Of a stretch of DNA of 47,816 bases, positions 15,868-29,568 are shown in pieces. The stretch spans positions 1-47,816 of the forward strand of contig DAIEIZ010000076.1 of assembly GCA_027351145.1 (NCBI GenBank), in the 5' to 3' direction. The stretch is from Candidatus Moraniibacteriota bacterium (GTDB lineage: Bacteria; Patescibacteriota; Minisyncoccia; Moranbacterales; UBA2206). Below the pieces are notes generated by a model. The model searched no databases. It worked only from the letters and a program-made list of their open reading frames with translations, and was not told where the DNA came from. Numbering within the stretch: the stretch's first letter is position 1; each line of letters opens with the position of its first letter. A program made the translations under genes and the position numbers.

Positions 15868-18312
15868 ATGGAAATGAAAATTGAACTGGAAAATATCCAG
15901 GCCAGAGAAATAACCGAAGAAATCCAACAATCCTATCTGGATTATGCCATGAGTGTCATTGTTTCGCGCGCTCTGCCTGATGTGCGCGATGGCATGAAAC
16001 CGGTACACAGAAGAATCCTCTATTCCATGTGGAACACAGGCTTACGAGCTAATGCAAAATTCAGAAAATCCGCCACCGTGGTTGGAGAAGTTTTGGGAAA
16101 ATATCACCCGCACGGCGACGTTGCAGTCTATGACTCGATGGTTCGTATGGCCCAGGATTTTTCTCTGCGCTATCCCCTCGTCAAAGGCCAGGGAAACTTT
16201 GGTTCGATGGACGGCGACTCACCAGCGGCTTATCGTTATACAGAAGCCAAATTGTCTTCAATTGCTGAGGAAATGCTCACAGACATTGAAAAAAATACCG
16301 TGGATTTCGTACCTAATTTCGACGGACAGCATAAAGAGCCGACTGTCTTACCTTCAAATTTACCGCAATTACTTTTAAATGGCTCGATGGGTATCGCCGT
16401 AGGTATGGCGACCAACATCCCACCACACAATATCACGGAACTAATTGAAGGTATTGATCATTTGATTGATAATCCTACTGCGACAGTGGAAGATCTTTGC
16501 GAATTTGTAAAAGGTCCTGATTTTCCAACCGGTGGTATCATTTACAATAAAAAAGATATTATTGAGGCCTACAAAACCGGTCGTGGAAAAATTCTTACTC
16601 GCGCTAAAGCGGAAATTAATGAGACAAAAGCCGGCGCTTTTCAAATTATTGTAACTGAAATGACCTATGCCACCAATAAATCAACCATGATTGAGCGAAT
16701 GGCAGATCTCGTAAAAGAAGGAAAGATTGTAGGCATCCGCGATATCCGCGACGAATCAGATAAGGATGGGGTTCGGCTTGTTATTGAACTAAAAAAGGAC
16801 GCCTATCCACAAAAAGTACTCAACAAACTCTACGATTTAACTGACCTCCAAAAGAATTTTAATGTTAATATGTTAGCATTGGTCAATGGCATTGAACCAA
16901 CCGTACTCAACTTGAAATCAATTTTTGAATATTACATCATCCACAGAAAAGAAGTTATCACTCGTCGCACTAAATTTGATCTGGAAAAAGCCAAAGATCG
17001 CGCTCATATTTTAGAAGGCCTAAAAAAAGCCCTCGATCACATTGATGCTGTTATTGAAACCATCAGAAAATCCAAAACAAAAGAAGAAGCACACGCGAAT
17101 TTGATAAAAAAATTCAAATTCTCCGACCGACAAACCACTGCCATTCTTGAGATGCGCCTACAAACCCTGGCTGGCTTGGAACGCAAGAAGATCGAAGACG
17201 AATTAGCCGAAAAACTGCGCATTATTGCCGAACTCGAAGCTATTCTCAAGAGCGAAAAGAAAATCTTAGGCATTGTTAAAAGCGAGCTTGATCGCGTGAA
17301 AGAAAAATATGGCGATGAGCGCATGACCAGAATCATTAAATCCGGAGTCACAGAATTCAAACAAGAAGATTTAGTTCCTAATGAAGAAGCTATTATCACC
17401 ATTTCCAAAGAAGGCTATATCAAAAGGATGAATCCAACAGTCTATAAGGTCCAAAAACGTGGTGGCAAAGGTGTCATCGGCGCTAGCACTAAAGAAGGCG
17501 ACGAAATCGAAAAATTACTTGGGGTTATGACGCATGACAATCTACTTTTCTTTACAAATAGCGGGAAAGTTTTCCAAACCAAAGCCTATGAAATCCCGGA
17601 ATCATCGCGCATTTCCAAAGGCCAATCCATCGTGAACTTCCTTCAACTTTCCGGCGAAGAAAAAGTGACAGCTATAATCGCTTTTAATAAAGATGACAAC
17701 TACAAGTTCCTCTTTATGGCCACTGAAATGGGTACAGTCAAAAAAACTACATTGGAAGAGTTTGAAAATGTTCGTCGTTCAGGACTAATCGCGATCAAGC
17801 TTGATAAGGGCGATGCTCTTCGCTGGGTCAGTGCCACAACCGGCACTGACGAAATCGTCATCACCACCGCTCACGGTCAAGCTATTCGATACAAAGAAGC
17901 TGATGTTCGTTCAATGGGTCGCTCCGCAACAGGGGTTCGCGGCATCAAGCTTAAAAAAGATGATTTGGTTGTTGGCATGGATGTCTTTTTCAAAAATCAA
18001 AAGGGCAATCAGCTACTCGTTATCACTGAAAATGGTTATGGAAAGAGATCTGATATTAAATATTATAAAATCCAAAAACGTGGTGGATCAGGCATCAAAA
18101 CCGCCGCTGTCACAGCCAAAACCGGAAAACTAGTTGGTGCCAGCATCATCAACGTCGACAATCTTGATGCTGATCTTATCCTTACTTCCGACAAAGGCCA
18201 AATCATCCGAATCCCGCTCGCCAGCGTCTCAATTCTCGGTCGCGCCACGCAAGGAGTCCGAGTAATGCGACCGCAAGCTGGAGATAAAGTATCTGCCATC
18301 ACAGTACTCTAG
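15868..18312 (+). CDS. gyrA: DNA gyrase subunit A
   Basis: [45 protein letters not shown] (catalytic Tyr region) and C-terminal beta-pinwheel repeats. Confidence 0.96.
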
Positions 18313-19300: not shown

Positions 19301-19607
19301 ATTATCAAATTTTGTATTATTAATTTTCAGCCTAAAAAAGCGTTGTTTGAATTTTAAATTTCCAGCTTTATATAAACTATATCAAAAAATCCAACAATCA
19401 CAAAGACTCGAATTAGCCAAGAGCAAAGATCTGTGCTAAAATCAGCCTACGACAGCCTTAATCCGCTTGTTTTGCAAGCGGAAATTAGGAAAAAGTTAGA
19501 GCTACTGAAAAAAACGTTAAAGTAAGATTTATTAATGATCTAATACGAGACTAATTTTAAACTTTAATATTAAACAACAAAACATTTTATTTGTCAAATT
19601 TTGTAAC

Positions 19608-19752
19608 CTACATTCTACCCATAAGTGAAACATTCATCAATTCTAATGGTGTTTTCCAATTAAGCCTTTTTTCTGGACCTTAGTGGTTTCCAATCTTTGT
19701 TTTTAAAACCATTATCCAAGATGAGTGTCTTTCTGTATTTTTTAGGTAACTC
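19608..19752 (-). pseudogene. Possible heavily decayed DDE/rve-type transposase remnant
   Basis: Minus-strand fragments KTLILDNGFKNKDW (a DNG motif) and WKTPLELMN (a ..KTPLE.. C-terminal motif of IS30/rve-type enzymes), interrupted by stops. There is no ORF of 60 aa or more anywhere in 19301-19901. Confidence 0.25.
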
Positions 19753-19901
19753 AGATTATTGCTTGTCATAATTCAGCTTACAACTTGATTATGAACACAT
19801 AGCCAGTCTTTCTATTTGCTAAGATTAACATTTCATATTCTAATTATGTCATGGTGTCGCAGTTAATTATTGAACTGACTGCTATCTTTATTTCTTACCA
19901 A

Positions 19902-21695
19902 TTATTCCACATGAAACAATTTCCATAAAAACACAACAAACAAAACCAATCCAACAATCCCCCATTCTGACCAAATTAAAAGAAAAATATTATGCACTGG
20001 CTGATATTGCCAAATCTCAAGATTTGGCAATAACCTCTCTGCGGTTATAACAAACTGCCCTGTACCAACGCCAACCATTGGATTATCCGCAATAATCCGC
20101 TCGGAGATAGACAAATATAACCCCCTTTCCGTAAGCGACTTCACAAGCAAGACATAAAATTCAACTCTAAAGAAAAACAGGCCTGTCAATGTAGCTAATC
20201 CTAAGCCTAGCAATAGCCTAAAATGTTCCACGTGGAACAATTTTTTCAAACTAATCCCCCTAAATGTTCCACGTGGAACATTTATATACACAAGAGCAAC
20301 CAATAAAGCTAAAATAGCTGATTTAGAAAAAGAAAGAATTATCCCAATAATTTGGACCGCTAGAACAAATTTAATAAAATTCGATTTAATTGTTCCACGT
20401 GGAACATTTTCGACTGATAAATCATTATTGCTCAAATTGTTCCACGGGGAACATTTTTCAGCATCTTGTTCCACGTGGAACAATTTCGAATAAAGCATAG
20501 TAGCCATGATTGAAAAAAATAAAAATCCACCCAAAATATTCGGGTGAGGAAAGAGACCATAGGAACGAATAAAGACATGATGATTAGCGACAATTTTTGC
20601 CACCCCGGGAATACTTTGACCAATTAAGCTTTCTTTGAGCAAAAATAGACCGAGGGAGTGCTGAATGATGAATTGAACAATTCCAGCCAAAGATTGCATT
20701 ATACCAAGGAGCATAATAATGCCAAAAAATACACCCAAATTATTAATTGTTCCACGTGAAACATTACTAGCATTTTCTATCCTTAAATTGTTCCACGTGG
20801 AACAATTACTTACATTATGCCTTTCACGCAAACTAATACCAGCTAATAAACCGCAAGCTAGCCAAAATAAGATCTGGCCTTGCCAAATATCCCACAAATA
20901 GTGGTCAAATAACATAACCACTATCAAGCCCAATAAAATTGCACGGAGATATTGGGTCATTTTTGACAAAACATATTCAAAATGTTCCACGTGGAACAAT
21001 TTAGTACTGCTATCCATAGCTTCATCTAAAATTGTTCCACGTGAAACATTACTAGATGAATATAAAAAATTGTTCCACGTGGAACAATTTAGCAAATAGC
21101 ACGGCACAAATCTTATGGCGATATAACTATATAAAAAATACAACTCCAAAAACCCAATAGATCTATAAATGCCAATTGCCCGATTTTCTGACCAAAAAAT
21201 AGACACAAATGACCAAATAACTAAAAGCAGGGGGACTAAAAAAACGCCAAAATTACAAAAAATGTTCCACGTGGAACATTTTTCACCAACATTCCGCTTG
21301 GATTGTTCCACGTGGAACAATTTAGTTAAAAACGCCTTAAAATAAGCAATTTTTCCTGTGGATAAGTTCTGAATAGATGCATTATTAACACCTTCTGCAT
21401 GATCTATCTTGTGGATAAACTTGAAAGTGCCATCACTAATCCTTGACGGATTTACTATTTTATTGCATAATATAGGTATAATCCAGCTTAGGATCGCAAG
21501 CCATAGAAATATATCAGAAACGTAAATATATGCCCCGATATACTCATTAAAAGCACCTTTTAATAAAAAGTATAATATTACTTTTCTGACCCCAAGCGTA
21601 AAAGTCAACAAAAACAAATAGAAAAACCAGATGTCTTTTGGCTGTTTCTTGTTTTTTTTCCAGATATCATCCATCTTTTCAGCTAAGTTTTCCAT
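19902..21695 (-). CDS. O-antigen ligase (Wzy_C) family polytopic membrane protein carrying in-frame parS-derived inserts
   Basis: Wzy-type motifs RSYGLFPHPNILGGFLFF, SFSKSAILALLVAL, GVGTGQF and QPVHNIFLLIWSEWGIVG, with many TM segments. Hydrophilic inserts contain KLFHVE(Q/H), CSTWN and V(P/S)RGT. Confidence 0.8.
   Translation of the reverse strand: MENLAEKMDDIWKKNKKQPKDIWFFYLFLLTFTLGVRKVILYFLLKGAFNEYIGAYIYVSDIFLWLAILSWIIPILCNKIVNPSRISDGTFKFIHKIDHAEGVNNASIQNLSTGKIAYFKAFLTKLFHVEQSKRNVGEKCSTWNIFCNFGVFLVPLLLVIWSFVSIFWSENRAIGIYRSIGFLELYFLYSYIAIRFVPCYLLNCSTWNNFLYSSSNVSRGTILDEAMDSSTKLFHVEHFEYVLSKMTQYLRAILLGLIVVMLFDHYLWDIWQGQILFWLACGLLAGISLRERHNVSNCSTWNNLRIENASNVSRGTINNLGVFFGIIMLLGIMQSLAGIVQFIIQHSLGLFLLKESLIGQSIPGVAKIVANHHVFIRSYGLFPHPNILGGFLFFSIMATMLYSKLFHVEQDAEKCSPWNNLSNNDLSVENVPRGTIKSNFIKFVLAVQIIGIILSFSKSAILALLVALVYINVPRGTFRGISLKKLFHVEHFRLLLGLGLATLTGLFFFRVEFYVLLVKSLTERGLYLSISERIIADNPMVGVGTGQFVITAERLLPNLEIWQYQPVHNIFLLIWSEWGIVGLVLFVVFLWKLFHVE
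20224..20280. repeat. parS cluster A (2 sites, starts 41 bp apart)
   Basis: Perfect palindromes at 20224-20239 and 20265-20280. They encode KKLFHVEH and NVPRGTF. Confidence 0.9.
20391..20482. repeat. parS cluster B (3 sites)
   Basis: 20391-20406 perfect, 20438-20453 TGTTCCACGGGGAACA, 20467-20482 perfect. They encode VPRGTI, CSPWNN and KLFHVEQ. Confidence 0.9.
20748..20804. repeat. parS cluster C (2 sites, starts 41 bp apart)
   Basis: 20748-20763 TGTTCCACGTGAAACA and 20789-20804 perfect palindrome. They encode NVSRGTI and CSTWNN. Confidence 0.9.
20983..21086. repeat. parS cluster D (3 sites)
   Basis: 20983-20998 perfect, 21033-21048 TGTTCCACGTGAAACA, 21071-21086 perfect. They encode KLFHVEH, NVSRGTI and CSTWNN. 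Confidence 0.9.
21263..21319. repeat. parS cluster E (2 sites, starts 41 bp apart)
   Basis: Perfect palindromes at 21263-21278 and 21304-21319. They encode CSTWNI and KLFHVEQ. Confidence 0.9.
21357..21418 (-). promoter_or_regulatory. Two perfect DnaA boxes (TGTGGATAA on the plus strand), 53 bp apart
   Basis: Exact 9-mers at 21357-21365 and 21410-21418, in the same orientation, inside the same hydrophilic insert region as parS cluster E. Confidence 0.4.
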
Positions 21696-21764
21696 AGTAG
21701 TAGTTCAGGGATAAGTGTTACTAGTGTAGTATTTTTCAAAATTATTCGCAAATTGAGATTAAAA

Positions 21765-21792
21765 TTGACTATCTTGTGTTAACTGTTATGAT
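21765..21792 (+). promoter_or_regulatory. Candidate promoter of the tRNA-Ala/Val/Arg cluster
   Basis: TTGACT-N16-TATGAT, ending about 25 nt upstream of tRNA-Ala. An alternative TAGAAT lies at 21803-21808. Confidence 0.45.
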
Positions 21793-21817
21793 TAATAGGC
21801 GATAGAATGAATATTTA

Positions 21818-28632: not shown

Positions 28633-29568
28633 CTATCTTTTTCTCTTTGAATGAAACGCTTGATGAATCTCTTTTAATTGCTTATTAGTAACATGAGTAT
28701 AAACCTGTGTGGTTGTGATCGAGGAATGGCCAAGCATGGCCTGTACCGAGCGAATATCAGCACCATTAATGAGTAAATCAGTGGCAAAAGAATGTCTAAG
28801 TGTGTGCGGATGGACATCTTTCACAATTCCCGCTTTTGTCGCATAGTATTTAACAATTCTTTGTACTGATCTAGGGGTTAATCTCAGGTTATCCACAGGT
28901 TTTTTAATGTTTTTACCATCAAACTTCCTTAATCCGGCAACATCCCTGACAAAAAGTGCAGGGTCTGTGTCCATCCTTTTCTCCAAATAGCGCATTATTG
29001 CTTGTGAAGCAGAATCGGATATAAACACCACCCGCACTTTATCACCCTTACCACGTACACTAAGCTCTCTCCCTCTGAGGTCAATTTTTTCCCGATTAAT
29101 GCCTGTTAGTTCTGAAACGCGTAAGCCGGCGGAGAACAAAAGCTCCAAAATAGCCCGGTCGCGAAGACTTTTTAAATCTCTCCCGCTCGCTTCAGATAGT
29201 ATTCGCTCAACCTCATCCATTTCCAAAAAATCCACCTCTCTCATGACGGACTTCCCCATTTCAATCTTGTCAGCTTGAAGCGTTTTAATGTCTCTTTTGA
29301 CCAAAAACTTAAGAAAACCACGAATCGCAATAACATAATAACCCTGAGTGATTTTTTTTAGTTTCTGACCATTACCATCCTCATAACGATTAAGATAAAT
29401 CCGAAAATTTCTCACCACTTCGGCCGTAATTTGTTCCGGCTTCGTGATTTTCGCCCACTCCAAAAAACGGTTGAGATAATGATCATAATTTTCAATCGTT
29501 TTTTGCGAACGACCTTTCTCGATTTCCAAATATTCCAGAAATTGAATCTTAAGTTTACGAATTTCCAT
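28633..29568 (-). CDS. Tyrosine site-specific recombinase, XerC/XerD family
   Basis: N-terminal SAM-like domain (FLEYLEIEKGRSQKTIENY). Catalytic region GLRVSELTG, HPHTLRHSFATDLL, LGHSSITTTQVYTHV. Confidence 0.9.
   Translation of the reverse strand: MEIRKLKIQFLEYLEIEKGRSQKTIENYDHYLNRFLEWAKITKPEQITAEVVRNFRIYLNRYEDGNGQKLKKITQGYYVIAIRGFLKFLVKRDIKTLQADKIEMGKSVMREVDFLEMDEVERILSEASGRDLKSLRDRAILELLFSAGLRVSELTGINREKIDLRGRELSVRGKGDKVRVVFISDSASQAIMRYLEKRMDTDPALFVRDVAGLRKFDGKNIKKPVDNLRLTPRSVQRIVKYYATKAGIVKDVHPHTLRHSFATDLLINGADIRSVQAMLGHSSITTTQVYTHVTNKQLKEIHQAFHSKRKR

Follow-up and report, generated by a model that had tools for sequence, protein, structure and literature searches.

The DNA analysed here comprises positions 1 to 47,816 of contig DAIEIZ010000076.1 (assembly GCA_027351145.1) of a Candidatus Moraniibacteriota bacterium, hereafter the window, in which a single gene for a predicted Wzy_C-family (O-antigen ligase/polymerase) membrane protein carries twelve copies of the chromosomal parS palindrome within ~1.1 kb of its coding sequence. 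We consider it quite probable that this cluster is a chromosomal centromere, that is, a dense intragenic array of canonical parS sites for the loading of ParB, because the repeated word is identical to parS, because it is confined to one locus, and because it is conserved at the DNA level over deep divergence. [quoted passage not shown] While the type of site is already known, its arrangement (dense, intragenic, and translated in three frames) is not a textbook one; full-text literature searches returned no account of parS arrays either for CPR bacteria or for Wzy-type genes, and the literature containing the exact 16-mer concerned Pseudomonas, Burkholderiales, Bdellovibrio and plasmid vectors.

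A motif scan of the window returned nine exact copies of the 16-mer TGTTCCACGTGGAACA, two copies of the GAAACA form TGTTCCACGTGAAACA, one copy with a single mismatch to parS (CGGGG), and a decayed copy, TATTCCACATGAAACA, that has two mismatches to TGTTNCACGTGNAACA and encodes the very C-terminus of the protein together with its stop codon (Table 1). An earlier, sequence-only reading of this DNA had listed these copies and their positions, the degenerate one among them, and every entry was recovered. Twelve sites thus match the chromosomal parS sequence at no more than one mismatch, and with the decayed copy they occupy 1.4 kb. By chance, 0.01 matches per window are expected at up to two mismatches, and the observed number of 13 was reached in none of 100 dinucleotide-preserving shuffles. 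The window corresponds to bases 14037-61852 of a public record (JAJYAZ010000002.1, assembly GCA_021779295.1), and in all 67 kb of this 72-kb contig could be read. Over the 21,794 bases compared, window and record differ at two (16143 and 20447), the second of which makes the one-mismatch site perfect, so that the record holds ten perfect and two GAAACA sites.

The identification of the motif as canonical chromosomal parS, proposed by the same reading, is corroborated by its identity with parS2 and parS3 of Pseudomonas aeruginosa, where the exact 16-mer is called a perfect palindrome (PMC4368675), and by its fit to the chromosomal consensus TGTTNCACGTGAAACA (PMC7022226). Beyond the array gene, no site was found in the window or in the 67 kb of contig, save for a two-mismatch match to parS at 16021-16036 in gyrA (TATTCCATGTGGAACA), so that the claim of no further copy in the window holds with this one exception. 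Such a match is unexpected by chance; we rejected it as a fourteenth parS, as it encodes the conserved GyrA peptide ILYSMWN, which also occurs in the GyrA of a relative (L092), and is a coding coincidence. The alternative of a dispersed repeat, be it of the repetitive extragenic palindromic (REP) type, a miniature inverted-repeat transposable element (MITE) or a Rickettsia palindromic element (RPE), is not borne out, either by the 67 kb of contig with its single locus or by the flanks of the related loci. Within the array, Tandem Repeats Finder reported 0 rows over 19800-21800, and there is accordingly no head-to-tail unit like that of F sopC; what recurs is the palindrome of ~22-26 nt alone, separated by spacers that are mutually unrelated. 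The two GAAACA sites lie in an identical 26-mer, AATTGTTCCACGTGAAACATTACTAG, at 20745-20770 and 21030-21055, translated SNVSRGTI in both places, which suggests that one of the two slots was recently copied from the other or underwent gene conversion with it.

The array is by no means peculiar to this genome. A search with the host protein returned 465 homologues, which carry the name "O-antigen ligase family protein [Candidatus Moranbacteria]" (across homologues, the organism names are Candidatus Moranbacteria, Moraniibacteriota or Parcubacteria group), and nearly all of the first 120 contain several parS-coded peptides, which fall at the same alignment positions from one homologue to the next and are replaced by gaps in homologues poor in sites. 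As this search relied on a word index and could favour parS peptides, we fetched 80 related metagenome loci (L125-L204) with two seeds unrelated to parS, YQPVHNVF and YGLFPHPN. All 80 genes, which are 32-70% identical to the query, carry at least two sites at no more than one mismatch (range 2-16, mode 9), and the 141 kb of gene contain 623 sites (4.4 per kb) vs. 8 in the 767 kb of flanks (0.01 per kb), with most of the eight flanking sites at the edge of the gene. Thus the sites are restricted to few loci and kept in relatives, in conserved slots, and the question raised in the sequence-only reading, whether related genomes hold the same array at the same locus, is answered in the affirmative at the level of DNA. 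What that reading missed is the in-frame embedding of the sites in three frames of a conserved membrane-protein gene as a clade-wide trait. On a broader scale, phmmer against 1.84 billion cluster representatives (50% identity) yielded 237 clusters at E<=1e-30, and 139 of the 150 best representatives have at least two parS peptides. Two homologues that looked poor in sites also proved to have them: L205 contains three copies of TGTTTCACGTGAAACA, the T/A form of parS, and L206 one perfect and two one-mismatch sites despite different neighbouring genes. The usual synteny is S1 - tRNAs - Wzy - gyrA; gyrA adjoins the Wzy gene in 42 of the 80 loci and likewise in L002, L092 and L205.

To judge by codon usage, selection acts on the DNA and not on the peptide, since synonymous positions are frozen and since one and the same word is coded in three frames. 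Over 624 sites in the 80 loci, the frames are represented 160, 181 and 283 times, and 59 of the 80 genes use all three. Each frame gives its own peptide: in the window protein, the palindromes read LFHVE(Q/H) five times (including the decayed C-terminal copy), CS(T/P)WN four times and NV(P/S)RGT four times. Among the related genes, VPRGT is spelled GTTCCACGTGGAACA in 208 of 212 cases, for which codon usage in these genes would predict 0.5%, and the parS codons are likewise used for FHVE in 159 of 165 cases (1.1% expected) and for STWN in 154 of 156 (0.4% expected). None of the 160 frame-0 sites has A at position 12, which would create TGA. The two "N" positions of the consensus, which played no part in selecting the sites, are C in 91% and G in 96%, and the conservation extends into a longer palindrome, AAAW-TGTTCCACGTGGAACA-WTTT, in which position -2 is A in 93% and position +17 is T in 90%, with background composition further out. 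The C/G form of parS has no stop codon in any of the six frames, in contrast to the T/A form, which has TGA in one frame of each strand, and this freedom from stops may be why the C/G form serves a coding array.

The array gene is a real gene, since its Wzy_C match lies above the Pfam cutoff (PF04932, aa 444-587, E 6.4e-13, 49.2 bits vs. a cutoff of 31.7), since its open reading frame (ORF) is open in 79 of the 80 related loci, and since invariant residues run through its homologues. On the basis of this match we regard its product as a predicted Wzy_C-family membrane protein, and it shows several predicted helices and hydrophobic segments; a sequence search of the PDB found no solved relative. 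In an AlphaFold model built on 30 homologues (mean predicted local distance difference test score, pLDDT, 49.5), the parS-coded peptides all map to segments that are non-helical and have pLDDT <50; these segments lie between predicted helices and do not overlap the hydrophobic stretches. The loops that contain these peptides, most of them K/R-rich, come after predicted helices 2, 4, 6, 8 and 10, and the conserved Wzy_C loop (aa 345-384) comes after predicted helix 7; we tentatively place all parS peptides in cytoplasmic loops. A fold search from the model was set aside because the model is too poor.

Across homologues, the parS peptides stand out as conserved islands within loops that are otherwise unalignable. 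Each site of the window occupies an alignment slot that 6-33 of 57 distinct homologues also fill, the frame being mostly the same within a slot; ten slots form a core filled in 24-33 of the 57, and the many slots seen in a single homologue attest to ongoing gain and loss of sites. Between neighbours, 41 bp is the commonest spacing (60 of 204 near pairs), and 145 of the 204 near spacings equal 2 modulo 3, which steps the frame from FHVE to CSTWN, on to VPRGT and back to FHVE. Two sites 41 bp apart together take up 57 nt, or 19 codons, as expected if units of two sites are gained and lost as in-frame blocks, and the window itself contains three 41-bp pairs in three different phases. In a relative (L092), three loops contain a cassette of three sites whose spacer (NSQCESYTIAKN) is nearly identical each time. 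Copying between slots, aided by the identical palindromes, would be the simplest explanation for how the sites multiplied. Helical phasing of neighbouring sites was rejected, as the spacings of 41, 47, 50, 56 and 59 bp are not multiples of ~10.5 bp.

A further form of the site occurs in 28 of the 80 relatives (e.g., L127, L134, L136 and L138, with L142, L143, L147 and L152 among the others) and is absent from the window. In this split parS, the two halves TGTTCCAC and GTGGAACA are separated by a GC-rich hairpin insert of 20-45 nt. All 49 instances lie within the Wzy gene, 41 of them have inserts whose length is a multiple of 3, and the predicted hairpins range from -8 to -25 kcal/mol. A recurrent 21-mer, CTGCCTACCGGACAGGCAGGC, appears in the inserts in both orientations and in several slots. 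The example in L127 (10415-10460) is orthologous to the intact parS at 21263 of the window, because the sequence of the right flank is common to both. These inserts may represent mobile GC clusters that home to the parS centre, or may reflect growth of the palindrome or a form of the site that depends on a cruciform.

The array gene also contains two perfect DnaA boxes in its first large loop (Table 1). In the 80 loci, perfect boxes occur at 0.38 per kb in the gene vs. 0.022 per kb in the flanks, a 17-fold difference, and one or more boxes recur at the same offset (~220-430), in direct or inverted pairs, in 29 of the 62 full-length genes. Reportedly, Mera and colleagues described in 2014 a DnaA-binding site at the Caulobacter centromere, intergenic and near parS and parAB. 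The two arrangements are alike in having DnaA boxes beside parS and away from oriC; they differ in that the boxes here lie in two different frames of the array gene, where they are kept in about half of the clade. Neither a dnaA gene nor an origin-like cluster of DnaA boxes was found in the window.

How might such an array work? ParB-CTP clamps would load at the individual sites, and many adjacent loading sites might build one large complex for partition or, by analogy to what is known elsewhere in bacteria, for loading structural maintenance of chromosomes (SMC) proteins in a small genome. Each 16-bp palindrome, together with its lineage-specific AAAW...WTTT flanks, would lie in a loop-coding segment and be translated according to its phase, a use of the palindrome as coding sequence that the stop-free C/G form would make possible. 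The protein would stay functional as the inserted peptides fall in tolerant, probably cytoplasmic loops, and the sites would have multiplied by copying from slot to slot.

Several observations weigh against this centromere interpretation. Searches by tblastn, using Spo0J, Soj and Escherichia coli DnaA as queries, together with a hidden Markov model (HMM) of 41 ParBs, found no ParB, ParA or DnaA gene in the 67 kb of contig. Nor did tblastn and the ParB model find ParB, ParA or DnaA within +-10 kb of the array in the 80 relatives (~0.9 Mb). The same queries gave ParB within 8 kb at 52 of 120 control loci, and in other bacteria parS usually lies near parB. Among the nearest 120 matches listed, a search with a consensus ParB gave only Collinsella and Clostridia and no CPR protein, and literature searches on ParB or parS in CPR, Parcubacteria, Moranbacteria or Patescibacteria yielded nothing of use. 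Nor does the array sit at a switch of GC skew, to which the sequence-only reading had looked for the position of the sites relative to the origin: skew at four-fold sites, taken separately for genes of each strand, is -0.37 and -0.39 left of the array and -0.31 and -0.19 right of it, and plain skew does not leave the negative range between 30 kb on the left and 36 kb on the right. Since both measures keep one sign, the whole 67-kb stretch is one replichore and the origin lies past its right end, at least ~30 kb from the array. An oriC at ~21.7 kb, where plain skew has a local minimum and gene orientation diverges, was rejected because neither the four-fold skew split by gene strand nor the skew of the contig ends changes sign. 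Finally, the low confidence of the structural model makes the statements on loops and topology tentative, and the 80 loci include some near-duplicates, so that counts over them are not fully independent.

Other explanations must account for the same facts. Selfish, self-propagating palindromic insertions, tolerated in the loops of this gene and without any ParB function, would sit well with a conserved unit (AAAW-16-mer-WTTT) that is longer than parS, with cassettes and 26-mers copied between slots, with the prevalence of 41-bp neighbours and of steps of 2 modulo 3, which fit two-site units of 57 nt moving as in-frame blocks, with the insertion of GC-rich hairpins of mostly frame-preserving length exactly at the centre of the palindrome in relatives, and with the turnover seen in singleton slots. 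There is precedent for such DNA in the Rickettsia palindromic elements and the GC clusters of yeast mitochondria, which are in-frame palindromic sequences dispersed over many genes and devoid of known cis-acting function; as in these, the palindrome is translated in tolerant parts of a protein and its lengths preserve the frame, and the hairpin inserts of the relatives resemble GC clusters in an AT-rich genome. The present palindrome is, however, a known protein-binding site and is confined to one gene. A mobile element should be dispersed, yet the density is ~400 times higher in this gene than in its 767 kb of flanks; moreover, the core is identical to universal parS, the core slots hold the same frame across proteins only 32-60% identical, and synonymous sites frozen over that divergence need ongoing selection on the DNA. 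Copying between slots also fits a functional array; we regard a purely selfish origin as unlikely. Much the same low credence is due to the proposal that the sites are operators through which another DNA-binding protein, such as a ParB-like protein of the Noc/KorB type or some other helix-turn-helix protein, regulates a surface-glycan gene. The sites always accompany the array gene, even where synteny differs (L206), the gene also contains DnaA boxes, which double as operators of DnaA in its role as a transcription factor, no ParB was seen nearby, and ParB bound to parS can alter the expression of nearby genes in some species (PMC7022226). But sites embedded in a gene necessarily travel with it, 12-16 intragenic operators across a whole coding region are not a normal design for repression, and the sequence is exactly that of chromosomal parS, not one of the diverged sites of the ParB family, of which the Noc-binding site is an example.

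A role at the RNA level, in which mRNA hairpins with A- and U-tracts would pause or terminate transcription, or pause translation after a transmembrane segment to help its insertion, might be read from the terminator-like AAAW...WTTT flanks (four sites were flagged as terminator-like, two of them on the sense strand), from the position of the sites after predicted helices, and from the strength of the hairpins formed by the split variants (-8 to -25 kcal/mol). A hairpin needs complementarity alone, however, and yet 14 of 16 positions are fixed to parS in every slot and lineage, with no compensatory variants seen; the 16-mer by itself makes a stem of 6 bp with a 4-nt loop, and a dozen terminators in an ORF would shut off a gene on which purifying selection clearly acts. 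We find this very hard to credit. That LFHVE, CSTWN and VPRGT are functional protein motifs, with the identity of the DNA as a by-product, has in its favour that the peptides form conserved islands in the protein alignment, but it would demand that a single DNA word yield three unrelated peptides, one per frame, that this word happen to be a perfect palindrome, and that its codons be invariant against expectations of 0.4-1.1%; the use of three frames and the invariance of the codons effectively refute it. A bolder extension of the centromere interpretation, which we offer as speculation and would not expect to hold, makes the Wzy_C gene a dedicated carrier of chromosome-maintenance sites that tethers ParB-parS to the membrane by transertion. 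The coupled transcription, translation and membrane insertion of its product would anchor the complex in ultra-small cells without known polar anchors, and the split sites would act as supercoiling-dependent (cruciform) switches or be GC-rich mobile elements homing to the CAC^GTG centre. Were it true, the centromere array and the DnaA boxes would have been placed in the gene of a polytopic membrane protein for a reason.

Among known systems, the array shares its 16-bp palindrome with the chromosomal parS of B. subtilis and P. aeruginosa, and single parS sites inside genes are ordinary, as in spo0J of B. subtilis; what sets it apart is the packing of 12 sites (up to 16 in relatives) into 1.1-2 kb of a single ORF, in three frames, with no parAB found within 10 kb and no origin within ~30 kb. 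Chromosomal parS sites usually number several per chromosome and lie within its origin-proximal 20% (PMC7022226). With respect to plasmid centromeres, the likeness to F sopC drawn in the sequence-only reading is one of density alone, as the array is no tandem repeat. The density and copy number are similar to those of the F sopC and P1 parS arrays, and the ~41-bp spacing is near the 43-bp period of sopC, which consists of 12 repeats of 43 bp in a non-coding, tandem, direct arrangement with plasmid-specific sequence; the present array, by contrast, lacks a tandem unit, has stretches of unrelated coding sequence as its spacers and uses the motif of chromosomal parS. Myxococcus xanthus, Corynebacterium glutamicum and Streptomyces coelicolor concentrate many parS sites in one region to form one or a few large ParB complexes, but these clusters extend over ~10-400 kb, in several genes or between genes, by parAB and oriC; the window array has ~10-100 times their density and is contained in a single gene.

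A scan for paired sites showed that parS pairs are common across all phyla. In a background set of 120 loci from all phyla, each of up to 8 kb and with two parS 5-35 bp apart, 112 have two or three sites and only two reach ten. One of the two, in a Parcubacteria metagenome-assembled genome (MAG), is the same Wzy gene beside gyrA. The other, in a MAG of an uncultured member of the Bacilli (L086, CALVIH010000001.1, 5900-8000), has ten parS in a 2-kb intergenic stretch that immediately follows gyrA, with a tandem repeat of a 44-bp unit (3.6 copies, 99% identical) of which each copy contains TGTTCCACGTGAAACA. Like the window array, it sits beside gyrA in a lineage of small genomes; unlike it, it is intergenic and truly tandem, a sopC-like array on the chromosome of another lineage and independent of the present one.

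The genes of the window include gyrA, that of an S1 protein, gmk, tilS, ftsH, pnp, uvrD and many tRNAs, a content that fits a CPR/Patescibacteria genome and agrees with the earlier suggestion of a reduced genome. Between the array gene and a DUF5655 gene lies an AT-rich, ORF-free stretch of 600 bp (19301-19901), unusually long for so compact a genome, which contains a parS half-site, GTGAAACA, at ~19626; the stretch has no conserved counterpart in L002 or L205, and comparison of the C-termini of homologues gave no support for this stretch as a decayed C-terminal extension of the array gene. A XerC/D-type tyrosine recombinase with Phage_integrase and SAM-like N-terminal domains is encoded at 28633-29568 on the minus strand, and in the same place in L205; it probably serves the resolution of chromosome dimers rather than being a prophage integrase. 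Past the right end of the window, the contig (L124, 11263-21116) contains genes of a type IV secretion or conjugation-like kind (PrgI, TraC-like, VirB4/TraC ATPase) after a TSP3-repeat protein.

Table 1. Array gene, parS sites (numbered in gene order), DnaA boxes and conserved neighbour, in window coordinates
Feature	Position	Strand	Remarks
Host gene, polytopic membrane protein, predicted Wzy_C (O-antigen ligase/polymerase) family	19902..21695	-	ORF of 597 aa; contains all sites
parS 1, perfect	21304..21319	.	LFHVEQ, aa 126-131, frame "F"; slot in 15/57 homologues
parS 2, perfect	21263..21278	.	CSTWN, aa 140-144, frame "S"; 41 bp from parS 1
parS 3, perfect	21071..21086	.	CSTWNN, aa 204-208
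parS 4, GAAACA form on plus strand (TGTTTCACGTGGAACA on coding strand)	21033..21048	.	NVSRGT, aa 216-221
parS 5, perfect	20983..20998	.	LFHVEH, aa 233-238
parS 6, perfect	20789..20804	.	CSTWNN, aa 298-302; core slot, 28/57
parS 7, GAAACA form	20748..20763	.	NVSRGT, aa 311-316; 41 bp from parS 6; core slot, 25/57
parS 8, perfect	20467..20482	.	LFHVEQ, aa 405-410; most widely kept slot, 33/57
parS 9, one mismatch in window (CSPWN), perfect in public record (CSTWN)	20438..20453	.	slot 32/57
parS 10, perfect	20391..20406	.	NVPRGT, aa 430-435; slot 32/57
parS 11, perfect	20265..20280	.	NVPRGT, aa 472-477; slot 24/57
parS 12, perfect	20224..20239	.	LFHVEH, aa 486-491; 41 bp from parS 11; slot 32/57
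Decayed parS, two mismatches	19903..19918	.	C-terminal KLFHVE and stop; slot with a site (<=1 mismatch) in 31/57 homologues
Perfect DnaA box TTATCCACA	21357..21365	-	gene offset 330; translated LST; first large loop
Perfect DnaA box TTATCCACA	21410..21418	-	gene offset 277; translated (F)IHK, different frame; 53 bp from other box
gyrA	15868..18312	+	Pfam matches; conserved neighbour of array gene, outside array

If the cluster is indeed a centromere, it would be, to our knowledge, the densest natural chromosomal ParB-loading array described. It would impose a double constraint on one expressed-looking gene, which has to satisfy a reading frame and a DNA-binding site at once, in three frames and in at least ~140 clusters at 50% identity, and would thereby provide a clean natural case of overlapping codes together with a testable account of why the C/G form is used. 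A compact centromere of 1.1 kb would lend itself to experiments on ParB, on CTP-dependent clamps and on SMC loading, and the array can serve as a practical sequence marker for the clade in metagenomes. The DnaA boxes and the hairpin-split sites at the same locus point to further unexplored biology, and the array itself would offer a first handle on chromosome segregation in the uncultured bacteria of the CPR.

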